DNA from: Smithella sp.
GTDB lineage: Bacteria; Desulfobacterota; Syntrophia; Syntrophales; Smithellaceae
Direction of reading: 5' to 3'
Length of the DNA stretch: 64,000 bases
Assembly: GCA_049517435.1 (NCBI GenBank)
Contig: JBEKRZ010000014.1
Coordinates: 7,443 to 71,442, forward strand
Numbering within the stretch: position 1 is the first letter of the stretch; each line of letters opens with the position of its first letter. A model generated the notes under the pieces. That model was not told where the DNA came from, did no database searches, and worked only from the letters and a program-made list of their open reading frames with translations. Positions 22,399-34,385 of the stretch are shown piece by piece. The translations under genes were made by a program, and so were the position numbers.

Positions 22399-23247
22399 TT
22401 AGGAGATGCCGCCATAGCTGTGGAGACCTGAGAGGATCAGGTTCACACCGAGATAGCAGAAGAGAGTGGCGGCAAAACCAATGATGGAGAGGATTGCCGC
22501 CCTCTTGCCCCGCCAGCCGCGGGTGATCCTTGCATGCAGATAAGCCGCATAAATAAGCCAGACTATTAGCGACCATGTTTCCTTCGGATCCCAGCTCCAG
22601 TATGTCCCCCACGCCACATTTGCCCAGAAGGCGCCAGTTACAATGCCTATGGTTAAAAGCGGAAATCCGATTGCGATGGTCTTATAGCCGATCTCGTCGA
22701 GCGCGGTAGAGGAGGGAAATGAATTCCAGAACGACTCGATGGGCTTGGGGGAGCGCTTCTCCGATCCTATCTTGAAAAAATAGAGGATGCTGACGCCGAA
22801 AGAGACGGCAAAGGCAGCATATCCGACAAAACAGCTCATTACATGGAAAATGAGCCAATTGCTCTTCAGAGCCGGCACCAACGGCTGAATATCATTTGGA
22901 TTCAATGAAGCATAGGCCATGATGAGAAAAGGGAAAGGGGCGACGAAAGCGCCCACCGTCCGAATATTGAACTTTCTCTCCAAGATAAGATAGATCAGGG
23001 CGATCGTCCAGGCGAAAAAGACCAATGATTCATAAAGATTCGTCATGGGCGCACGCCCTATCCCCATTTGGTAGGATTCGTACCATCTCATGCCGATCGC
23101 TGCCGTTTCGACAATGACGCCGCCGAGTAGGGAGAAGCTCGCCACCTTCCCCAGCATCTCAGACCGGAACGCCAGATAAGAGATATAAAGCACCATAGCG
23201 AAAAAATATATAAATGTAGCAATGCCGAATAATAAAGAATTGGTCAT
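22399..23247 (-). CDS. ccsA: Cytochrome c biogenesis System II heme-handling protein (CcsA/ResC)
   Basis: WWD domain WGTYWSWDPKETW, conserved His (IFHV, YLH, GLHSY), multiple TMs. Confidence 0.93.
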   Translation of the reverse strand: MTNSLLFGIATFIYFFAMVLYISYLAFRSEMLGKVASFSLLGGVIVETAAIGMRWYESYQMGIGRAPMTNLYESLVFFAWTIALIYLILERKFNIRTVGAFVAPFPFLIMAYASLNPNDIQPLVPALKSNWLIFHVMSCFVGYAAFAVSFGVSILYFFKIGSEKRSPKPIESFWNSFPSSTALDEIGYKTIAIGFPLLTIGIVTGAFWANVAWGTYWSWDPKETWSLIVWLIYAAYLHARITRGWRGKRAAILSIIGFAATLFCYLGVNLILSGLHSYGGIS

Positions 23248-24644
23248 TAAGAAATCTCCTTCAAGTTCTGAATTATCTGTTCCATCTCTCTGGCAAAGGC
23301 GTCGCGGTTTTTGTTTGCCGTTCCGCCGATCTTCAATTCACTCTTCCCTTTTTTATCGGTTCTCAGGGAGATCCATATCTTTTTGTGTGACACGAAAAAA
23401 GCGATCATAATGCCCGCAATCAGCAGCATACTGCCCAACCACACCAGAATCTCTCCCGGATCATTGTTGACCTGAAGTCCGGTATATTTTTTCATTTTCA
23501 AGTCCTTCACCTGGAAATAGTAAGCACCGCCGCGATGTCGATCATATTCGGGATGATCAATAAGGAGCCACAACTCCACGGGTGCCCCTTTAGCCGGGTA
23601 GATGTTGACGCCGATTGCCCGGCCACCTTCCACTCCGTCAGGCAGATGAAAATGTTCCTGATAATCGGCCACCTCCACTTTATCAGTCTCACCGAGAATA
23701 TCAACCTTCCGGTCGAAGGGCGTTGTCATCGTTCCCTTCAGGGAGCCATCTTTGTTCACTACGTCGATCGCCACCTGATCGGGTAGTCCTCCATAGCTGG
23801 ACTGGTAAAAGGTAACCCCTTCGAAAGTCAAGGGATCGTTCACCCGGATTGTTTTTCGGATCACTTCTTTGCCGTTCTGAAAAATTGAGAGATCACTGCG
23901 ATAATCCATCGGGGCTCCGTTGGAATAGAATTCGGCGTGAAACGTATTGCATTTTATCTGAAAATCCAGCTTCTGAATATTTCCGACTCTGGTTTCCAAC
24001 TGCGAAATAGTCTCCCCTTCGAAAATGTTAACATATCCTTTGTAACCGAAAAAAGATCCGCTTATGGCGCCGAGAAAAACCATCAGAATGCTCAGATGGG
24101 TCATAAAGAAAGCCAGGCGGCTATATTTTCCTTTTTCAAAGAAATAATGACGCTCGCCGTCCTCCATCGCGGTTACCACTGGTTTACCGGGAAAGTTCTT
24201 CCCGGCCAACTCCACCATTTTCCTTTCTACGATATCCAGTTGTAGGACATACCGGATCGTTGTAATATTCTGTAAAGATTTTGAAAGTTTTTCGTCAAGA
24301 ATGATGTTATTTTTTCTCATCCCGGCCATGATTCCCCGGTAGCGGTCCATCGTGCAAGCGGTGATGTTCAGGGCTAGCAGCGACAGGCAAGCGACGAACC
24401 ACCAACTATGATACATGTCGAAAAGACCGAGCTTCAAAAACAAGGCAACGGTCCCCGGTTGATAAACCCGGTAATATTCTTGCAGAGGTTTATTTTGTTC
24501 AATCAAAGTTCCAACAATCGAGAATACGGAAAGGATAAGCAAAAGGATTATAACGAGCTTCAGGGATGTCAGAAAATTCCAGAGTTGTGAGATCCAATCG
24601 TTTCCTTTATCTTTTGCCGTCCCTGCCGGCTGGTCAGCAGACAT
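23247..24644 (-). CDS. resB: Cytochrome c biogenesis protein ResB (CcsB/Ccs1)
   Basis: GTLIEQ, DMYHSWWF, THLSIL, IRVNDPL...FYQSSY, DPG motifs. Confidence 0.92.
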   Translation of the reverse strand: MSADQPAGTAKDKGNDWISQLWNFLTSLKLVIILLLILSVFSIVGTLIEQNKPLQEYYRVYQPGTVALFLKLGLFDMYHSWWFVACLSLLALNITACTMDRYRGIMAGMRKNNIILDEKLSKSLQNITTIRYVLQLDIVERKMVELAGKNFPGKPVVTAMEDGERHYFFEKGKYSRLAFFMTHLSILMVFLGAISGSFFGYKGYVNIFEGETISQLETRVGNIQKLDFQIKCNTFHAEFYSNGAPMDYRSDLSIFQNGKEVIRKTIRVNDPLTFEGVTFYQSSYGGLPDQVAIDVVNKDGSLKGTMTTPFDRKVDILGETDKVEVADYQEHFHLPDGVEGGRAIGVNIYPAKGAPVELWLLIDHPEYDRHRGGAYYFQVKDLKMKKYTGLQVNNDPGEILVWLGSMLLIAGIMIAFFVSHKKIWISLRTDKKGKSELKIGGTANKNRDAFAREMEQIIQNLKEIS

Positions 24645-24688: not shown

Positions 24689-26743
24689 CTACTTTTCTTT
24701 TTTCACAGCGGGGGCTGTCAACAGAGCTTCCACCTTTTGGACATCTCTCTGTACTTGATTAAGAATCGCCATGGCCAGGTCTGGATTGTGAACGCCATTG
24801 GCACTGACTACAAATTTATAAGTATTCCGTGCCTGATTAAGAAGTTTTGCGGCCTCATCAACATCCCGCTTCATTTTGCGGGAGTCGTCCAATTTCCGGC
24901 CAGTCTTTTCAAGCGAATCATAAGTATTCTTTTGCTTCGCCATGATTTCCTGCTTCCATTTGTCGAGAATTTTCACGTGGGCTTCGTCATGGCAGACAAC
25001 GCATGTTGTGGAGATGTTCTTATATGTCTGCTTTTGGGAAAGGTCGTGACAATTGACACACTCAACCTGTCCGGCCTTCACATTTGGCTTTGCTTCCGGT
25101 AATTTTATCGGCAGATTATTGGCAGTAAAGAGCGCAGACTGTTTTTGATGACAGCGCACGCATTGGGTATTTTTCGGGCTGTGGTGACAAGCCATGCAAC
25201 CTTCTTTGGTAATGCTGACCTTTTTATGCTTTTCCGCCGAATGGCAGGTCGTACAACCAAGGCCAAACTCAAAGGCATGGCGTGTGTGCGGCAGTTTGAT
25301 CCCCTGAAAGGAGATCACGTTAGGAAGCTTCACCCCGGCCTTATCGTGGCAGAGTTGGGCGCAATAGCCTCCCCTGATCGGACTTTTTTCGGGAAGGGAG
25401 GGTGCTATCTTCCCGATCGTCCGGAAGAGACTGTTCAGGTCTCTGTCCGCTACCTGGATGAGCTCCGCCGCATAGAAGGGATTATGAACCCCTTTCCCGA
25501 CCTTCACGAAATCGGCATTGTATCTGGCGTCTTCATAAAGTTTTCGGGCCGCCTGAAGTTTTCCTTCGGTTTTGCCCGATTTTTCCAGAACCTGGCGGGC
25601 CGCGTTTAATTTGGGCTCAATATCCCTCTGGATAATATCAAAGGTTTCTTTCCAATCCGTGAGCATTCCTTTGTATTGGTTTCCGTGGCAGTGCGTGCAG
25701 GCCTTTTCCGCAGCCACGAAAGTTCGACCACTTCTCCCGCCGCCCATCTCTGCGCCTTTCGGCTGGATATGGCAGGCCAGACAGTCCACGCGGAAAATGA
25801 ACATGTGACTTGGGGTGGTCGGAACTCCTTTGCCTCTCTCCCCCATGAACATCTCTTTCGGCGCGCTGTGAGTTTCCGCATGGCAGGCATTGCAGCTGTA
25901 TTCCATAAAACGCACTTTAGATGTCTTCATGCTGTGTTTAATTTCATCATGACATCGCGTACAGTTCACTTTTCGTTTGGCGACATGGGTATTGTGCATG
26001 AACGTTACATCATCGTACCTTGCCAGCCTCTCCGGTTCATTGTGACAGTCGTAACATTTTTCCTTATGAGCTAATCCTTCTCCCTGGATGACGTCGAGAT
26101 GACAATTTTCACAGGCGACATGACGTGACCCGGCAAAATCATTATGGTTAAAGGTGAGCCCCTGGAACTGAATATCTTCCTTCGGGTATTCATGGCAGGT
26201 GATGCAATTCCCCAGCGGGAGCATCCCCTTTTGTTCCGGCTTGTGCCGGAAGTGGCAAAGGAAGCAAGTGCTGTCTGTCACCTCAACATGCGTACCCACA
26301 ACAATCTGGGAGTGACAGCTCGTACAGCGCAACTGTTTGCCCCGCCGTAAATCTCCTAAATGAAATTTGTGATCGAAGCGTATTCCCTTTTTATAGATGA
26401 GTTTATTCGACATTAACAAATTCCTGGAATGGCATCCCGCTCGCAGGCAACTGGCATCATCGATCTGGGCGTAGGGCTTGGAGATGTACTTTTTCCTGGT
26501 CACATATTGGACCACGGAATTGATCGCTTGAAACTTAGCCCACCAAAGCTTTTTGGGGTCGGGAGAATAATGGCACAACACGCAGGAGACATCTTTGTGT
26601 TTTGAAGTCTTCCAAGCGTCGTAATAGGGTTTCATAATGTGGCAACTGTTACAAAATCCGGAAGTGGAGGTGTAATAAGCCAGATAGCCTATAACGGCCA
26701 ACCCCAAAACCAAGCAAATGACCAGCACCCGTATCCTTTTCAA
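24689..26743 (-). CDS. Membrane-anchored multiheme cytochrome c (16 CxxCH + CX4CH + CX3CH), NapC/NirT-like N-terminus
   Basis: 16 canonical CxxCH counted, plus CLRAGCH and CAQLCH; N-terminal TM helix. Confidence 0.9.
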   Translation of the reverse strand: MKRIRVLVICLVLGLAVIGYLAYYTSTSGFCNSCHIMKPYYDAWKTSKHKDVSCVLCHYSPDPKKLWWAKFQAINSVVQYVTRKKYISKPYAQIDDASCLRAGCHSRNLLMSNKLIYKKGIRFDHKFHLGDLRRGKQLRCTSCHSQIVVGTHVEVTDSTCFLCHFRHKPEQKGMLPLGNCITCHEYPKEDIQFQGLTFNHNDFAGSRHVACENCHLDVIQGEGLAHKEKCYDCHNEPERLARYDDVTFMHNTHVAKRKVNCTRCHDEIKHSMKTSKVRFMEYSCNACHAETHSAPKEMFMGERGKGVPTTPSHMFIFRVDCLACHIQPKGAEMGGGRSGRTFVAAEKACTHCHGNQYKGMLTDWKETFDIIQRDIEPKLNAARQVLEKSGKTEGKLQAARKLYEDARYNADFVKVGKGVHNPFYAAELIQVADRDLNSLFRTIGKIAPSLPEKSPIRGGYCAQLCHDKAGVKLPNVISFQGIKLPHTRHAFEFGLGCTTCHSAEKHKKVSITKEGCMACHHSPKNTQCVRCHQKQSALFTANNLPIKLPEAKPNVKAGQVECVNCHDLSQKQTYKNISTTCVVCHDEAHVKILDKWKQEIMAKQKNTYDSLEKTGRKLDDSRKMKRDVDEAAKLLNQARNTYKFVVSANGVHNPDLAMAILNQVQRDVQKVEALLTAPAVKKEK

Positions 26744-26781
26744 TGTACCTCTTGATCAGTTCTGTATTTTCAAAGCTTTTC

Positions 26782-28032
26782 CTATGGCTTTATTCGCTCG
26801 TATTGAGGCTTGATGGCGGCCTTGTCATATTTCGAGTGGACAAAATCACCCCGCAGGATGGGGACGGCGATCCTCATGAACATGGTAAAGATAAAGAGCC
26901 CAGAAGCCCATATCCCCAGAGAAATGGCTATTTCATTGATATTCGGCAGGTATTCGTAAATCTCGCCGAGAGGATCGGGAACAAAGCCGGGAACGATCAA
27001 ACCGAGCCCCTTTTCAATCCACACGCCCAAGATGATGAGTAGCGAACCGATATTGAGTGTGATCAGATTATTCCTTGTTCCGGGAATCAGGAAGATCAAA
27101 AAAGCTGCTATATTCATCGCCATGGCCGACCATATCCAGGGAACCAGGGCATGATGACCGTGCACCCCCTGGAAGAGATATTTCATAGGCTCCAGATGAA
27201 TAGTACCTGTATAATACTCCTTGAAGATTTCGGCTCCCAGCAGGAACAAATTGATGAACATGGCGTAGGCCATCAACTCGGCAATCTTGAAAAGCGCCTC
27301 GTTCTTGATTTTCAGCCCCATCGTCTTTCTCAAAATCTGGAAAATAATTAACGCTATGGCCGGCCCGGAACAAAAAGCGCTGGCCAGAAAACGAGGCGCC
27401 AGAATGGAGGCATTCCAGAAGGGTCGGGCGGCAAGCCCGTTGTAGAGAAATGCGGTCACGGTATGAATACCCACTGCCCAGGGAATGGAAAGTAAAACCA
27501 GTGGAATGACGAATTTCTTTACCGGTTCCTTGCGGAAGTACATCTTGATCAGAATATATATCGGAACGATGGCGTTCAGCACCATATAGACGTTCAGAAC
27601 GATCACATCCCAGGCCATAAGTGAACTGGGAAAGGAAAGAATTCCGATAAACGGTATAACATGCCAAAACCGGTCAGGTCTGCCAAGATCGGCCATAATA
27701 AACATCAAGGCCATGATGATGGCCGAAGCGGCAAGAAGCTCTCCCAGAACAACGATTTCTTTGATGGGATCGAAGTGATAGATGTACGCCGGAATAACGA
27801 GGAGCACGGCCGCGGCGGCGACGCCGACCAAATAAGTAAAGTTACCGATATAGAGACCCCAGGAGACCTGGTCTGTCATATTGGTTACAATCAATCCAGC
27901 ATCCAGTTGTTTCGCGTAGAAGCTAATCCCCACACCAATAATAGCCAGTAAAAAAGCACACCAGAAGTAGTAGACCTTCGTCCCGACAAAAACCATTCGG
28001 ACCGTTCTTTTAAAAAATATCCAAGCTTCCAT
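26782..28032 (-). CDS. nrfD: NrfD/PsrC-family quinol oxidoreductase membrane subunit (CbcU/HmcC-like)
   Basis: SWGLYIGNF, DLGRPDRFW, SLMAWD, HTVTAFL; about 10 TMs. Confidence 0.9.
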   Translation of the reverse strand: MEAWIFFKRTVRMVFVGTKVYYFWCAFLLAIIGVGISFYAKQLDAGLIVTNMTDQVSWGLYIGNFTYLVGVAAAAVLLVIPAYIYHFDPIKEIVVLGELLAASAIIMALMFIMADLGRPDRFWHVIPFIGILSFPSSLMAWDVIVLNVYMVLNAIVPIYILIKMYFRKEPVKKFVIPLVLLSIPWAVGIHTVTAFLYNGLAARPFWNASILAPRFLASAFCSGPAIALIIFQILRKTMGLKIKNEALFKIAELMAYAMFINLFLLGAEIFKEYYTGTIHLEPMKYLFQGVHGHHALVPWIWSAMAMNIAAFLIFLIPGTRNNLITLNIGSLLIILGVWIEKGLGLIVPGFVPDPLGEIYEYLPNINEIAISLGIWASGLFIFTMFMRIAVPILRGDFVHSKYDKAAIKPQYERIKP

Positions 28033-28048
28033 GCTGTCCTCTAAAACG

Positions 28049-28951
28049 CTATGCGGAAAAGAAATAATAAAATTTGGGTTCCGCGTTCAAGTCTTCCTTT
28101 AATCGAAAGACCCTTTTATTTTCAATAAGATATCTTATTTCGCTGTTCGGATCGAGCAGGTTCCCGAATTTTCTGGTTCCCGTGGGACAGGCCTCCACGC
28201 AGGCGGGGTAACGCCCATTCCGGACCCGTTGGACACAAAACGTGCATTTTTCCACAACATTTTTCATACGGGGCCGGTTCCCCAGATAATGGACATCCGT
28301 ATTCAACTCTTTCACGGGAATATTGGGCTCGCCCCAGTTAAAAACCCGTCCCTTGTAAGGGCAGGCAGCAATACAATAGCGGCAGCCTATGCACCAATTG
28401 TAATCGACCACCACAATGCCATCCGGTTCCTTCCACGTCGCCTTGACTGGGCATACACGCACGCAGGGTGGATTTTCGCAATGCTGGCATTGAACCGGCA
28501 TGTACATGAACCCCGGCTCCGGCACTGTTTCCGGATTATAGTAGTGTTCGGCATTTTCGAGGTTGATCATACTCCCATTTTTCAATCGGACGACCCTGAT
28601 CCATTGGAGTTGCGGGTTGACCCGGGACTGATTGTTTTCTTTCACACAGGCGTAAACGCACCTTCGGCACCCGATACACCGCGACAGATCAAGGCCATAG
28701 CCCCAGAGAATCCCGGCACCGGCCGGCTTGGTGCTGATTTGAAATTTTTTCCCGTATTTTTTCAGGTACATCTCTTCCAATCGCCGGATAACCTGTTTCT
28801 TCTCTGTCTCAGACATTTCCCGGAAGTTCTTCTGAAGGAACTCTTCCACCTTGTCTTTAGTGCACGCCGAGCTTCCCAGGTAAAGCGCGGCCACGGTGCC
28901 CATGGACATCATCTTTATAAATTCTCTTCTGGTATGCGATCTATCTTCCAT
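28049..28951 (-). CDS. Tat-exported 4Fe-4S dicluster protein (NrfC/CbcT/HmcB-like)
   Basis: TRREFIK twin-arginine motif; CIGCRRCVYAC, CQHCENPPC, CIGCRYCIAACP, CTFC...CVEACP. Confidence 0.92.
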   Translation of the reverse strand: MEDRSHTRREFIKMMSMGTVAALYLGSSACTKDKVEEFLQKNFREMSETEKKQVIRRLEEMYLKKYGKKFQISTKPAGAGILWGYGLDLSRCIGCRRCVYACVKENNQSRVNPQLQWIRVVRLKNGSMINLENAEHYYNPETVPEPGFMYMPVQCQHCENPPCVRVCPVKATWKEPDGIVVVDYNWCIGCRYCIAACPYKGRVFNWGEPNIPVKELNTDVHYLGNRPRMKNVVEKCTFCVQRVRNGRYPACVEACPTGTRKFGNLLDPNSEIRYLIENKRVFRLKEDLNAEPKFYYFFSA

Positions 28952-29438
28952 ATGTCCGTTCCGGTTTGGTTGGTGGGGGTTCCGGTTTCAGGGGTTTGAA
29001 TTTAGGGTCATGGGGATTGTGACAATTCACACAAAGGAAATAAACCCTTTTCCCCCCTTTGAAATATCCGATCCTTTTGCCGTGGATGCCGACTTTCCAG
29101 TCGCGATAGATATTGCCGTGGCACTGTCCGCAGAGCAGGTAGGACTCCGTAAACTTGATGGTGTCCCCATTGGCAAGCTTCAATTTATCCCTGTCGGCTG
29201 GATTGTGACAATCAAGACACCAGCGGTCTTTTTCAGCATGGTGCAGTTTGATGTTGGTATGCTCATCCTTGAGTTCTCTCTTTTTTGCATTGACCTCCAG
29301 CCCCGCATGACAGTTGCTGCAGGGAAATATCCCCTCCGATAATGGGGGCATTAAAACAGGATATTCATCGTGGTGCAATGCGAACGCGGGCACGCCAAAT
29401 GCAATAATTGCGAATAAACATAGGAATCTTATTTTCAT
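28941..29438 (-). CDS. Periplasmic tetraheme cytochrome c (CbcS-like)
   Basis: Signal peptide; CSNCH, CLDCH, CGQCH, CVNCH. Confidence 0.88.
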   Translation of the reverse strand: MKIRFLCLFAIIAFGVPAFALHHDEYPVLMPPLSEGIFPCSNCHAGLEVNAKKRELKDEHTNIKLHHAEKDRWCLDCHNPADRDKLKLANGDTIKFTESYLLCGQCHGNIYRDWKVGIHGKRIGYFKGGKRVYFLCVNCHNPHDPKFKPLKPEPPPTKPERTYGR

Positions 29439-29728: not shown

Positions 29729-29758
29729 AAAAAAATCCCCGCCTGTTTCCAGGCGGGG
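29729..29758 (-). terminator. Rho-independent terminator after the omcB-like gene
   Basis: 9-bp stem CCCCGCCTG/CAGGCGGGG with 4-nt loop followed by a T-run on the minus strand. Confidence 0.8.
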
Positions 29759-29797: not shown

Positions 29798-32179
29798 TTA
29801 TGGACGCTCCGGAGAGCTCCATCCGCCGGTTGTGTGACTCCATCCGATCAGGTAAAGCATGGCTTCCGTGGTGCCGGGCGCCAAGGTGGTCAGCGTGCTG
29901 TCCGTGTACGCCGTTGCTCCCTTGCCGAAGAGGCCGTAGACAGGGGAGCCCACAGTGCCCGACAAAGCCAGAGCAGTGGCGCCCACCGACCCGTTCATCA
30001 GACCATCGTCAAGATAGTCGATGGTATCATAGAGTAACCTGCGGGAGTATGTGAGGGCATGGGCGTATGCTCCCGGCTCTCTCTTTAAGAATACAATATT
30101 GGAAACAGCTCCCATCACTCTGGCTTTGTTGTACCCTGCTCCCAGGATAGTCATAGCCGCCGTCCAGTCCGCTGCTGCCGCTTCTGTCAACGTCGGTAGC
30201 GCACTGGTTTTGTATGCCCTCACAAAATCAGGCAAATCTCCTCCCTCACTAGTAATTGTGATGCCTGTATTCTTATCATTAAAAACTTTAATTGCAAGCG
30301 AAAGAGCAGCCTGATAGGCTTCGGACTGTGGCCCCAAGAAGTATTGATTGAAGTCCGCGATCATCGTGATAGCATGACCTCCTTTCGAGGTGTGGCAATT
30401 ATTACAGACAGTGGTGATAGTCTTTTGATCAATAGTTAGGCTATGGTTGCCGGGAGTACGATGGCAGGCTACGCAAGGACCGTTGGCCGTCAGATTTGTC
30501 TGGGATGCAGTGATACCATGATCGCCAATTATTGTCGGCGTCCCCAGTTTCCGGTGGGTACTGGTAATGGTTCCACCATCCTGATCAGATAAAAGAGAAG
30601 TGTCAATTGTTACACCGGGAAGAGCACCCGGAGCAAACGTAATGAAGCCCATTTTGATATACATGGTTGCGGCCGCCTGCAGATAGTGGGTTCGTTGATA
30701 GTTCGTGCTTGTGTCGGTGATAGCACCGGGGTCCTTCTCCCGGGAATCATGACATGCAATACAAATATTGGATGCGGCAATATCGGGGTACCGCAGCTTA
30801 CCGTAATTGAGCGTGTATCCCGGCGGATTCCAGCCCAGATCTGTGGTGTAATTGGTTGTTGGATTGGCATCTTTGAGCGTGCGCAATATACCTGCGCCGG
30901 GATTCGTATGGCAACCATAGCATTTAAGAGGTCCTGCGGCAATTGTACCCGGATTGGTGGTTAAATTTTCAAAGAAGTAAGAGAATCCTTCCGTCGTATG
31001 ACATCGTCCACAGATCCCCGAATTGTGACCGCCGAAAGGACCGCCGGCAACTGTGGCCGCCATAACGGCGTCCACCTGCGCTGTGCTTTTAACAACGAAT
31101 GGTGCAGCCGCGGCATATTTCGCTGTAAGCAATCCGCGGGCATGACCAGACTGCGCCCAATCGGTATAAATTGTTGCCTTTGCAGGATCGTAGGACACAG
31201 ATGCCGGATCGTTATTACTATTTGTCATGGCATTATGGCCGTGACAATCGTAACAGGGATTCGGATTGATGGATCCGTTTGGCAATGTTAACCGTATCCC
31301 ATAGCCTGTTATGTTCCCTGCTACCAGGGCTGCCGGATCCTGGTAATGAGTGGTGCCTATTATCCGGTACCACGAGGTCTCATGATGACCGACTAAAGCG
31401 GTACCCGATGCCACCGTACCGGAACCCATAAGAAGACCGGTTGGGTTTGTATAGCCGTGGCATTGCGTACAGAGACGGAACTGGTCATTGAGGGGACTTG
31501 CTAAACTGCTCGTAACGGAACCAACCGTCGTACTGGGATTCCAGGTTGCATCCACACGAAGTTTTTTGGAATCATGCGTCATATGGCAGGTATCGCACTG
31601 GATCGGCCTGAGATCAGTTACTGTGCCCGGCGCGTTTACTCCGGCCGCCATGACTGTCCCGTCGCCGGTGAAATTGGACATAGCGGACAAGACGGCACCC
31701 ACGTGGGTGTGGCAGCGATTGCACGGTGCTGCTGCTTCTATTTGGACGCCAAGGTGTTTGGAGGTGGAATAGGCTGTACACAATTGATAGTTAGTGGCAA
31801 GAATCACCGTGGACAGGGCCGATATGTCCCCCCCGGTAATGGCTACACCGTTGTTGTGGCAAACGGCGCACTGCACATAATTGGGGTCCGGATAGGGAAT
31901 CGGGCCTACACCATTGTGCGATCCGCCATTTCCGTGGCAGGCCTGGCAGCCTACTGAATTAAGAGCGTGGACCGACGTGTCGTATGTCGTGACGATCGAA
32001 TAACCCGTCAGAGTTTCAAGCGTTGTACTGTGGCACGTCGTGCAGGCCGTGTTGTCAACAGCAGACACCACACCTGAGTCGTCACCATCCCTGTTCGACG
32101 AACCACAGCCGCTTATAAGCAGCAACGACAAGACCAACGCCATAATCGAAGCGAAACCAACATATCTTTTTTTGTTCAT
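29798..32179 (-). CDS. omcB: 12-heme outer-membrane lipoprotein cytochrome c, OmcB/OmcC-like
   Basis: Lipobox LISGC; 12 CxxCH counted; N-terminus ACTTCHS..ETLTG.S...GCQACHG.G..HNGVGPIP matches the OmcB pattern as I recall it. Confidence 0.85.
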   Translation of the reverse strand: MNKKRYVGFASIMALVLSLLLISGCGSSNRDGDDSGVVSAVDNTACTTCHSTTLETLTGYSIVTTYDTSVHALNSVGCQACHGNGGSHNGVGPIPYPDPNYVQCAVCHNNGVAITGGDISALSTVILATNYQLCTAYSTSKHLGVQIEAAAPCNRCHTHVGAVLSAMSNFTGDGTVMAAGVNAPGTVTDLRPIQCDTCHMTHDSKKLRVDATWNPSTTVGSVTSSLASPLNDQFRLCTQCHGYTNPTGLLMGSGTVASGTALVGHHETSWYRIIGTTHYQDPAALVAGNITGYGIRLTLPNGSINPNPCYDCHGHNAMTNSNNDPASVSYDPAKATIYTDWAQSGHARGLLTAKYAAAAPFVVKSTAQVDAVMAATVAGGPFGGHNSGICGRCHTTEGFSYFFENLTTNPGTIAAGPLKCYGCHTNPGAGILRTLKDANPTTNYTTDLGWNPPGYTLNYGKLRYPDIAASNICIACHDSREKDPGAITDTSTNYQRTHYLQAAATMYIKMGFITFAPGALPGVTIDTSLLSDQDGGTITSTHRKLGTPTIIGDHGITASQTNLTANGPCVACHRTPGNHSLTIDQKTITTVCNNCHTSKGGHAITMIADFNQYFLGPQSEAYQAALSLAIKVFNDKNTGITITSEGGDLPDFVRAYKTSALPTLTEAAAADWTAAMTILGAGYNKARVMGAVSNIVFLKREPGAYAHALTYSRRLLYDTIDYLDDGLMNGSVGATALALSGTVGSPVYGLFGKGATAYTDSTLTTLAPGTTEAMLYLIGWSHTTGGWSSPERP

Positions 32180-32205
32180 GGCCGATTCTCCTCACCAGTA
32201 TTAAA

Positions 32206-32901
32206 TTAATACGTTATATGACATTTTCTACAGGTTCTTCCTTTACTGTCATTTTTATACTTGTTCATGATGGATTTCCAATTTCGGGGATGGGGATTCA
32301 CCTTCCCACTGCTGTGGCACTGGATACAGACATCCGCATCCGGATGACAAGATTCGCAGGACTGCAGGTTCCTTCGCGCTTCGGACGCATGATCCGAATT
32401 CCAGTTATATATCTGCGAGGTGCCGGCCGGCCGGTGTGATTTTATTTTCATGCTGCCCTTATTCCGTATCTTGGTGTGACAGTCCTGACAGAAACTCGAC
32501 TCGTGGCAGCGATAGCAATTCTGGGGGTTATCCTTAGCCTTTATAGAATGGATAGAGATAAAATCGGAGCGATGCGTCTTGGGCATATACTCCCCCTTGG
32601 TCGACAGACTTTTCTTCAAATCAGGTTCAATGCCTCCGCCTTTGTGGCAATCTAAACAGAAGGATTGTTGATGGCAATCCGCACAATTGTTCCCCGCCTT
32701 TTGGGCCAGCAACCGATGTTCTTTCACAAAGAAATCACCGTGATTGGCTATCACGCCAACGCTGCTGTGACAAACCGGGCAGTCACTAAGTGCTACATCC
32801 TTGAATTCTCTGTGGTCGGTCCTGGCAAAGGAGAGACAGACGACCAAGAGAAGTAAGGCTGTGGACAACAGTATAATTTTAAATGCCTTATTATTTATCA
32901 T
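32206..32901 (-). CDS. omaB: Periplasmic 8-heme cytochrome c, OmaB-like
   Basis: Signal peptide; 8 CxxCH counted; located between the porin and the OmcB-like gene. Confidence 0.8.
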   Translation of the reverse strand: MINNKAFKIILLSTALLLLVVCLSFARTDHREFKDVALSDCPVCHSSVGVIANHGDFFVKEHRLLAQKAGNNCADCHQQSFCLDCHKGGGIEPDLKKSLSTKGEYMPKTHRSDFISIHSIKAKDNPQNCYRCHESSFCQDCHTKIRNKGSMKIKSHRPAGTSQIYNWNSDHASEARRNLQSCESCHPDADVCIQCHSSGKVNPHPRNWKSIMNKYKNDSKGRTCRKCHITY

Positions 32902-32918
32902 GGTCTCCCCTCATAAGT

Positions 32919-34385
32919 TCAATAATTGATATTAATGGCCACAAAGCCTTTATAACTGTTGTTATAGTTGAAATTGATATCGTCCTCAACCTTCATGCTT
33001 ACAGTTATGATCTTACTGAATTCGTAATTGACACCTGCCCAGTATTTTTCCGCATTTCCATCGCGGGAGTCATACCTTCTGAAATCATCATAATCGATTC
33101 CGGCCATAAGAGCCATCTTGGAGATCTTATACTCACCATAAAGTCTGATGCCGCTGAGACCGTCGGTATAACCGCTCCTTATTTCATAGGTCGCATTAAT
33201 GGTTAGATCTTTGATCGGACGGGCAAGAAAACCAACGTCATAGACATTGGCAATCGCACTATCGCTGTTACCGATATTACCACTAAAATCTTCCCGGGCG
33301 TATTTAACGCTGACCCGGTACTTGCTGGTCAATTGATACTCGGCGGAAATGCTCTGTTCCTTGTACTGGTCGACGGCAAAAACACTGTAAAGGGAGGAAG
33401 TGTCAAACGTAGGATAACTTTCATAATACTCGCCGCGAAGGGTTAAATCTTGGAGAGGGGTGACTTTTGCGCCAAAAAGCATCTCATTGAACGATTCTGA
33501 AATAGTGTCATATTTCAACCGCGCGTAAAAATTAACCATACCACTGATAGGGGTGGTGGAAAAATCCAGACCAACGTTTTCGCGCGCTAACAGGCTGTCG
33601 CCATCGGCCTCACAATATTTCCTTCCATAACTCACTTCGACATGCGTATTTTTTATTGTATCCAGATAAACGCTCATTCCGATGAGGCCATCCCCTCGAG
33701 TGCCCGTCTCTGTCTTATCTGCAAATATCACATTTCTCCCGCCGAAAAAAGTAATCCCCATCGGACCCAGATTTTTCAGATCCATGTGGATACCATCTAT
33801 GGTTCCGGAAACCGCCGCTTCATTTACAAAGGTTCTGCCGGCTCTTAAATCGAGATGTTCATTGAAGGCATCCCGGTAATCCAGGTAAAAATAATACAAC
33901 CTTCCTTGGAAATCTTCATCATGATCCGTCCAGAGTTCTTTGATAGCCCTTCCGTATGCGTAAAAGTTGATCTTCCCTTCCTTGTCCAGATTGGTGACAT
34001 TCATCCGCAAATACTGGGCAAAATCCTGGATGCTCTTCTCCCTATCGACCGCCAACAAATCCTGATACCAAAGATATTGCGTGGAACTCGTCAGCTTTAC
34101 CTCCGCCCGCTGAGGACTTCGAGGCGGGTTCTCCTGCTCCGGCTTTTTCACCTCCTGCTGAAGGCTTCTAGGCGTCTTATCTTGTTCCGGTTCTTTTATC
34201 TTTTGTTGAGGACTTTGAGGTGAGTTATCATCAAGGGCGTCTTCTGCGTCGGGTGCATTAAATCCCCTTAGAGTAAGCTGCGTCTTCTTAATTGGTTCCT
34301 GTGCCATAATGGGTATGGCCACAAATAGCATACACGTAAAAAATACTACTGACAATGAACCAATAAATATCCTACTTTTCATCAT
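32919..34385 (-). CDS. ombB: Outer-membrane beta-barrel porin-like protein, OmbB-like
   Basis: Signal peptide, alternating amphipathic beta-strand pattern rich in Y/F/G, C-terminal aromatic (AININY), no CxxCH; assignment relies on synteny. Confidence 0.72.
   Translation of the reverse strand: MMKSRIFIGSLSVVFFTCMLFVAIPIMAQEPIKKTQLTLRGFNAPDAEDALDDNSPQSPQQKIKEPEQDKTPRSLQQEVKKPEQENPPRSPQRAEVKLTSSTQYLWYQDLLAVDREKSIQDFAQYLRMNVTNLDKEGKINFYAYGRAIKELWTDHDEDFQGRLYYFYLDYRDAFNEHLDLRAGRTFVNEAAVSGTIDGIHMDLKNLGPMGITFFGGRNVIFADKTETGTRGDGLIGMSVYLDTIKNTHVEVSYGRKYCEADGDSLLARENVGLDFSTTPISGMVNFYARLKYDTISESFNEMLFGAKVTPLQDLTLRGEYYESYPTFDTSSLYSVFAVDQYKEQSISAEYQLTSKYRVSVKYAREDFSGNIGNSDSAIANVYDVGFLARPIKDLTINATYEIRSGYTDGLSGIRLYGEYKISKMALMAGIDYDDFRRYDSRDGNAEKYWAGVNYEFSKIITVSMKVEDDINFNYNNSYKGFVAININY

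Follow-up and report, generated by a model that had tools for sequence, protein, structure and literature searches.

A three-gene redox module in a multihaem cytochrome island

The stretch of DNA analysed here, hereafter the window, comprises 64,000 nucleotides of contig JBEKRZ010000014.1 from a Smithella sp. assembly (GCA_049517435.1). Our subject is a trio of genes within it, encoding a tetrahaem cytochrome c, an iron-sulphur (FeS) protein exported by the twin-arginine translocation (Tat) pathway and a membrane protein of the NrfD family. The trio sits within a 13-kb island on the minus strand (Table 1). The tetrahaem and FeS genes share an overlap of 11 nt, and a gap of 16 nt separates the FeS gene from the NrfD gene. 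Neither a molybdopterin nor a hydrogenase gene adjoins them, and the trio constitutes a cytochrome/FeS/NrfD module without a catalytic subunit. A first-pass annotation, made from the nucleotide sequence alone, had already described overlapping or near-adjacent genes, four 4Fe-4S motifs and a twin-arginine signal, and our open reading frame (ORF) and motif analyses agree with it.

Table 1. Positions of the trio and of the neighbouring features in the window
Feature	Positions	Strand	Characteristics
Tetrahaem cytochrome c, 165 aa	28941-29438	minus	CXXCH at residues 40, 74, 103, 136
Tat-exported ferredoxin-like protein, DsrO-like, 300 aa	28049-28951	minus	four 4Fe-4S motifs
NrfD-family membrane subunit, DsrP type, cofactor-free, 416 aa	26782-28032	minus	Pfam NrfD 131 bits
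16-haem cytochrome, 684 aa, membrane-anchored	24689-26743	minus	16 CXXCH, NrfH/NapC-type N-terminal head
ResB/CcsB and CcsA, system II cytochrome c maturation	22399-24644	minus	same gene string as trio
Terminator-like hairpin, 9 pairs (8 G-C) and T run	29737-29758	minus	between 12-haem and tetrahaem genes
Upstream operon: porin-like (488 aa), 8-haem cytochrome (231 aa), 12-haem lipoprotein cytochrome (793 aa)	29798-34385	minus	

The tetrahaem cytochrome begins with a Sec-type N-terminus, in which a single hydrophobic stretch ends in AFA. Its four CXXCH motifs, together with four distal histidines (H60, H67, H119 and H143) that are invariant in the alignment of its family, imply four bis-His haems. 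A PDB profile search returned nothing stronger than weak haem-motif matches to NrfA and NrfB, and the AlphaFold model of this protein is poor (pLDDT 55). The FeS protein carries the twin-arginine motif TRREFIK and 16 cysteines arranged in four ferredoxin-type groups. Its Pfam matches are confined to ferredoxin domains (Fer4_11 and related families), and a PDB sequence search matched it to PsrB and to the C-terminal part of ActB from alternative complex III (ACIII). The NrfD-type subunit, presumed to hold the quinol site, was modelled as a multi-helix membrane bundle (pLDDT 93.6).

The membrane subunit is of the DsrP type

The trio was compared with NCBIfam profiles, whose cut-offs are 350 bits for DsrP, 200 for DsrO, 570 for QrcD, 348 for NrfD and 314 for TtrC. 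The window NrfD scored 409.6 bits with the DsrP profile, over its cut-off, and remained below the cut-off with QrcD (42 bits), NrfD (32 bits) and TtrC (29 bits). The FeS subunit reached 195.6 bits with DsrO, just under the cut-off, and 162 bits with the QrcC model; the DsrJ model gave no match to the tetrahaem cytochrome. Canonical proteins score 485-492 bits for DsrP and 301 bits for DsrO with the same profiles. The Psr and Hyb types were judged without a cut-off, PsrC being a weak fold match and Escherichia coli HybB lying distant in the trees. Residues of the quinone site and the proton half-channels have been listed for DsrP1 (PMC8076601), and 16 of them are kept in the alignment by the window protein and by at least 90% of its clade: Y61, T66, Y83, E98, D115, S137, D142, Y149, S182, H190, T193, R203, R214, S218, E268 and the gate lysine, K341. 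The first-pass annotation had named proton-channel residues as a point to check, and D115, S137, D142 and K341 are all in place.

In a first phylogenetic tree, the branches of E. coli DmsC, NrfD and HybB were saturated, with DmsC appearing as a rogue inside the window clade; a second tree was rebuilt with CbcU-type proteins and HybB as the outgroup. Canonical DsrP proteins formed one clade (97-98, starred) and the window type formed a separate one (99, starred); far outside both lay the CbcU-type proteins, as did HybB and NrfD of E. coli. The tree leaves open the order of the three-way split between canonical DsrP, the window clade and a group joining intermediate and cable-bacteria proteins. 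By its profile scores and by the phylogeny that the earlier annotation had suggested, the window NrfD stands apart from the Psr, Ttr and Hyb types.

Several features bring the trio close to the DsrMKJOP complex, namely the DsrP score, the 16 residues kept and the gene order, since cytochrome-FeS-NrfD corresponds to J-O-P. Others separate the two. The window cytochrome is a tetrahaem protein, whereas DsrJ is a trihaem protein with a His/Cys haem; the FeS subunit falls below the DsrO cut-off, and the window clade is distinct from that of canonical DsrP. In addition, a scan of the whole genome to which the window belongs (3.1 Mb, 98.4% complete) found no DsrA, DsrM or DsrJ, and no DsrK above the cut-off. 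The trio might be seen as a DsrJOP fragment left behind by a lost sulfite-reduction system, given that another genome of the same genus (G082, locus L108) has a complete canonical dsrMKJOP, with all five genes over their NCBIfam cut-offs (DsrM 468, DsrK 743, DsrJ 160, DsrO 301 and DsrP 485 bits), and that PGAP-style naming labels such proteins DsrP. However, the window NrfD is 44% identical to the DsrP of that genome and 90% identical to the window-type NrfD of a Syntrophaceae metagenome-assembled genome (MAG). Its separate starred clade and its association with a conserved tetrahaem cytochrome, instead of the trihaem DsrJ, point in the same direction, and we rejected this origin as scarcely credible. 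The genome of the window has the tetrahaem-linked paralogue in place of that operon, and a further genome of the genus holds neither.

The NCBIfam DsrP 'equivalog' model also gives 397-419 bits to tetrahaem-linked NrfD proteins outside Dsr systems (loci L116, L119 and L121). Scores over the cut-off lead annotation pipelines to the name 'sulfate reduction complex subunit DsrP' in the absence of any Dsr system, so that the model mislabels such proteins as sulfate-reduction subunits in organisms without Dsr. The public homologues, mostly from Syntrophales and Syntrophorhabdales MAGs, bear the names DsrP, NrfD and HybB-like.

Two other quinol-oxidizing systems resemble the trio in part. In the structural comparison, the NrfD model came closest to ActC (TM-score 0.80; 8k9e_C, 6btm_C and 6f0k_C), the FeS subunit is similar to the C-terminal part of ActB, and ACIII (ActABCDEF) is itself a quinol:cytochrome c oxidoreductase. 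Sequence identity is only around 20%, however, and the window has no molybdopterin-like ActB domain, no second NrfD (ActF), no ActD and no ActE. With E. coli NrfBCD the trio shares a periplasmic multihaem cytochrome, a Tat-exported FeS protein and an NrfD protein that pass quinol electrons to another cytochrome, as well as the weak NrfB-like signal in its tetrahaem subunit. Here, the differences are the low score with the NrfD model, the distance in the tree and the absence of NrfA from the genome.

A further member of the cable-bacteria family

A 'dsrOhPh-tetrahaem' locus has been described in cable bacteria, in which homologues of DsrO and DsrP are encoded away from dsrMKJ and together with a cytochrome carrying four His-His haems; a small TMH1 gene was also reported in it, and the locus occurs in organisms without sulfur metabolism as well (PMC13047784). 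Its function was termed elusive, the authors speculating that it conducts electrons from quinol to periplasmic cytochromes (PMC13047784), and it is mentioned in the preprint on the structure of DsrMKJOP (bioRxiv 10.64898/2026.08.25.746951). In five closed Desulfobulbaceae genomes with the published cable signature, we found DsrK elsewhere and the only DsrP-like gene in an FeS-NrfD-tetrahaem locus. All three subunits of this locus are homologous to those of the window, with identities of 37-38% for NrfD, 50-65% for the FeS protein and 41-47% for the cytochrome, and both loci combine DsrO and DsrP homologues outside dsrMKJ with a cytochrome that has four bis-His haems. They differ in their NrfD clades, in gene order (FeS-NrfD-cytochrome in the cable type, cytochrome-FeS-NrfD in the window) and in the length of the cytochrome, which is 276-328 aa in the cable type and 165 aa in the window. 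The window module, moreover, is placed in a cytochrome island of a genome without Dsr genes. It is a further member of a recently named family, found in an unusually informative setting.

The three-gene order is conserved across phyla

Using a 13-sequence alignment as the query, we collected 80 related loci from species-representative genomes, with NrfD proteins 55-90% identical, and assigned their gene contexts by BLAST against all ORFs. By label, the MAGs in question belong to Thermodesulfobacteriota, Myxococcota, Nitrospirota, Nitrospinota, Planctomycetota, Acidobacteriota, Gemmatimonadota, Actinomycetota and Pseudomonadota. All three genes were present in 70 loci, and the order tetrahaem-FeS-NrfD was found in 68 of these, with tetrahaem homologues 46-93% identical located upstream of the FeS gene. 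Such a recurrence is far beyond chance. The loci without a complete trio are mostly contigs that end just upstream of the NrfD gene. Additional ORFs with at least four haem motifs were present in 43 out of 79 related loci. Phylum-wide, NrfD matches with 57-70% identity occurred in about 40 out of 301 genomes, those with 41-46% identity in many more, and a few fell at 48-51%. Operons of the 41-46% group encode proteins of 330 aa and 535-555 aa, a trihaem cytochrome of about 134 aa, an FeS protein of about 260 aa and an NrfD protein of about 390 aa. In the same-genus genome G082, the NCBIfam profiles identify these five as DsrM, DsrK, DsrJ, DsrO and DsrP.

Two look-alike trios: DsrOP-type and Cbc4-type

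The first-pass annotation had held the trio to be the same as the Cbc4 type of Geobacter (CbcSTU, GSU0068-0070). CbcS has 160 aa, of which residues 1-29 form a membrane anchor and residues 30-58 a linker, and the published supplementary primers for it encode R59-T-K-A-Y-C64 and the C-terminus EELKRYE. We located the CbcSTU genes of G. sulfurreducens through the published CbcS primer sequence, which was absent from the GTDB family of the Geobacter MAG and was found when the search was run at the order level. The order's 239 genomes yielded one occurrence, located at position 84,179 of a single contig of 3,814,128 bp, in an ORF for a 160-aa tetrahaem protein with the exact primer-encoded residues; this ORF is followed by ORFs of 257 and 417 aa.

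The architecture is indeed shared. Cbc4 consists of a tetrahaem cytochrome, a four-cluster FeS protein and an NrfD-family protein (CbcU), in the same gene order and without a catalytic subunit, and it too has been proposed to be a menaquinol:cytochrome c oxidoreductase. The identity of CbcT to the window FeS protein amounts to 36%, but it drops to 26% (over 78 aa) for CbcS and to 19% (E 0.002) for CbcU. CbcS has a membrane anchor and a linker of about 30 residues, with its first haem motif at residue 64, whereas the window cytochrome lacks both and has its first motif at residue 40. The tree places the CbcU-type proteins in its outgroup, and the G. sulfurreducens genome searched contains no DsrP-like NrfD. 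Furthermore, in 16 out of 80 loci a window-type trio has a Cbc4-like trio as its direct neighbour, examples being Geobacteraceae and Nitrospirota MAGs as well as the window's nearest relative; their tandem occurrence indicates that the two are paralogous systems. We therefore rejected orthology with Cbc4, which is very unlikely given the low identities, the outgroup position of CbcU and the tandem co-occurrence, and retained the likeness of architecture from the earlier claim. The genome of the window holds no Cbc4-like trio. Two look-alike trios between which the literature draws no link, one of the Cbc4 type and one of the DsrOP type, can be told apart in this way.

No catalytic partner was found elsewhere in the genome

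The NrfD gene of the window is the only one of its family in the genome. A single molybdopterin protein was found (contig C3, 27000-31000), which is NuoG/FdhA-like with a fused 2Fe-2S N-terminus and adjoins a NiFe-hydrogenase-like pair; from its sequence, it is read as probably cytoplasmic. The genome-wide search detected no other member of this family and, accordingly, no separate formate dehydrogenase in the periplasm, which leaves few exits for quinol electrons. The genome also has a single NiFe hydrogenase of the periplasmic type, which is equipped with a cytochrome b of its own. DsrMK and DsrAB, the partner that affinity to DsrP would imply, are missing from the genome. A Psr, Ttr or Hyb assignment of the NrfD subunit, with its catalytic subunit encoded at a distance, was the outcome that the first-pass annotation had set against its own reading. 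The family scores, the trees and the lack of a partner anywhere in the genome all argue otherwise, and we rejected the trio as an anchor for a catalytic subunit of any of these types, or of the Nrf type.

The search for quinone-linked partners was less favourable to the earlier annotation. A canonical electron transfer flavoprotein (ETF):quinone oxidoreductase (ETF-QO) was not found in the genome. Instead, there are two EtfAB loci, each followed by a protein of 671-716 aa that resembles the EMO of Syntrophus, combining a membrane domain at the N-terminus with an FeS domain of the CCG type.

Operon context and the 16-haem cytochrome

The strong terminator-like hairpin parts the 12-haem gene from the tetrahaem gene, which suggests that an operon of its own begins with the trio; weak promoter-like hexamers are found at 29669-29589. 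Beyond the trio, the gene for the 16-haem cytochrome begins 38 nt past the NrfD gene. This cytochrome presumably either accepts the electrons of the trio or forms a second point of entry for quinol. It matches the NrfH model at 47 bits and Cytochrom_NNT at 32 bits (cut-off 24); the sequence CNSCHIM at its first haem is a motif of the CXXCHXM form. A first haem motif of this form is typical of NrfH quinol dehydrogenases, and its presence suggests a possible second quinol entry point in the trio's own operon. ResB and CcsA, which are followed by a SurA-like gene, are also encoded 3' of the 16-haem gene in the nearest relative. The porin-cytochrome operon upstream is presumed to provide the outer-membrane exit of the electron path.

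When all ORFs of the genome were scanned, four were found to have at least two CXXCH motifs, and all four lie inside the island. Because no multihaem ORFs are encoded elsewhere in the genome, the cytochromes of the island are the only possible acceptors, and the gene order indicates the 16-haem protein. This genome context supports quinol oxidation feeding extracellular electron transfer.

A probable quinol:cytochrome c oxidoreductase

We consider that the trio is probably a quinol:cytochrome c oxidoreductase facing the periplasm, made up of DsrO and DsrP homologues and a dedicated tetrahaem cytochrome, and that it probably feeds the cytochromes of the island and an extracellular acceptor. In DsrMKJOP, quinol is oxidised at DsrP, electrons pass via DsrO to haems and protons are released to the periplasm (bioRxiv 10.64898/2026.08.25.746951). 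In the scheme that we infer, including its direction of flow, quinone species, physical contacts and any proton pumping, the two EtfAB loci with their EMO-like membrane FeS oxidoreductases would supply the quinone pool, and menaquinol or methylmenaquinol would be oxidised at the DsrP-like membrane subunit, its protons being released toward the periplasm by analogy with DsrP. From there, electrons would cross the four 4Fe-4S clusters in the Tat-exported subunit, enter the four bis-His haems and move on to the co-transcribed 16-haem anchored cytochrome; the neighbouring porin-cytochrome complex, together with an acceptor or partner outside the cell, would come last.

The first-pass annotation had proposed a menaquinol:cytochrome c oxidoreductase that could dispose of high-potential electrons from acyl-CoA dehydrogenase and ETF without reverse electron transfer to H2. 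The oxidoreductase itself is plausible and backed by the context. The remainder of the proposal does not hold in that form, as no ETF-QO is present, a menaquinone pathway went undetected and an uphill step remains: in Syntrophus, a step powered by proton-motive force (pmf) takes place at EMO itself (bioRxiv 10.64898/2026.08.18.745454). Reverse electron transfer would, therefore, be reduced and not abolished. By analogy, what an extracellular exit would save is the second climb alone, the one to formate or H2.

A number of observations weigh against the proposed function. Direction is unreadable from sequence, and the related Qrc complex runs the opposite way. The 16-haem cytochrome bears its own NrfH-type quinol-dehydrogenase head, and the trio may not be the sole or main quinol entry point. 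In the nearest relative, the porin-cytochrome operon does not adjoin the trio. Finally, neither menaquinone pathway was detected genome-wide, with no MenB above the cut-off and no MqnA or MqnD, and the two MenA-like prenyltransferases found are weak, one of them adjoining an AhbD-like radical SAM gene. The earlier annotation had named menaquinone synthesis genes as a point to check. These negatives are in line with the menaquinone status of Smithellaceae, reported as "unresolved" (PMC13685792). As a separate observation, the genome encodes at least three quinone-dependent modules (the NrfD trio, the cytochrome-b hydrogenase and the two EMO-like proteins), yet neither the classical nor the futalosine pathway was detected in it.

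The question of direction bears on a rather unlikely alternative, in which the same complex works in reverse, as Qrc does, carrying electrons from multihaem cytochromes (supplied by a partner, a mineral or reduced humics) to quinone and feeding enoyl-CoA respiration via EMO and ETF. NrfD modules do run either way in different complexes (PMC8076601), EMO and ETF run forward when Syntrophus grows on crotonate (bioRxiv 10.64898/2026.08.18.745454), and the FeS subunit has its QrcC score. Yet the membrane subunit is far from the QrcD cut-off, it follows the DsrP1 type in its Asp, Ser, Asp and Lys residues, and DsrP, the nearest characterised relative, oxidises quinol (bioRxiv 10.64898/2026.08.25.746951).

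The NrfH-type head opens another route, likewise rather unlikely: it could be the real quinol dehydrogenase of the island, leaving the trio to act as a second entry tuned to another redox window, to perform a pmf-coupled step or to serve an unrecognised periplasmic substrate. The NrfH and Cytochrom_NNT scores and the CXXCHXM motif favour such a division of labour, as do the frequent tandem arrangement of the two trio types and the example of Geobacter, which runs several quinol oxidases at different potentials. On the other hand, the trio and the 16-haem gene, only 38 nt apart, are kept together in the nearest relative, most related loci have the trio without an NrfH-type neighbour, and the genome offers no candidate periplasmic enzyme.

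If quinol oxidation by the trio is correct, it would provide a cytochrome route for quinone-level electrons in a syntroph of the Syntrophales (Smithellaceae-like), bypassing formate or H2. A direct electron-transfer route in Smithellaceae has been stated to be unresolved (PMC13685792), and for syntrophy the module points to a place where electrons at the quinone level could exit. More generally, the tetrahaem/DsrO-like/DsrP-like module, widespread as it is in MAGs labelled with nine phyla, might be a quinol oxidase of general use that supplies multihaem cytochrome wires. We raise this tentatively; if true, it would say what the orphan module of cable bacteria does. The present genome offers the cleanest case in nature, with no sulfur metabolism, no other NrfD and all multihaem cytochromes in one island. 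The family was named only in 2026, and the presence of its module as the sole NrfD complex, encoded together with the only multihaem cytochromes of the genome, makes for a concrete, testable assignment.

Variation among related loci

The nearest relative (locus L028), whose NrfD is 90% identical to that of the window, has genes for an 8-haem cytochrome, a CbcT-like protein and a CbcU-like protein inserted between its NrfD and 16-haem genes (L028:10008-12700). The counterpart in the window (26743-26782) is the 38-nt junction alone, and no homologue of CbcU or CbcS is present in the genome. Five loci of the window clade (L048, L051, L052, L056 and L059), mostly from Nitrospirota MAGs, with L052 labelled Desulfuromonadales, have NrfD ORFs of 532-566 aa. 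Their 120-150 extra residues appear to be C-terminal, because N-terminal trimming gave no shortening. In the Desulfomonilaceae-like loci and those of the intermediate clade (45-51% identity), including L115, L116, L122, L049 and L055, among others, the trio regularly stands next to a cytochrome (about 460-480 aa, 8 haem motifs) that may be a fixed fourth subunit.

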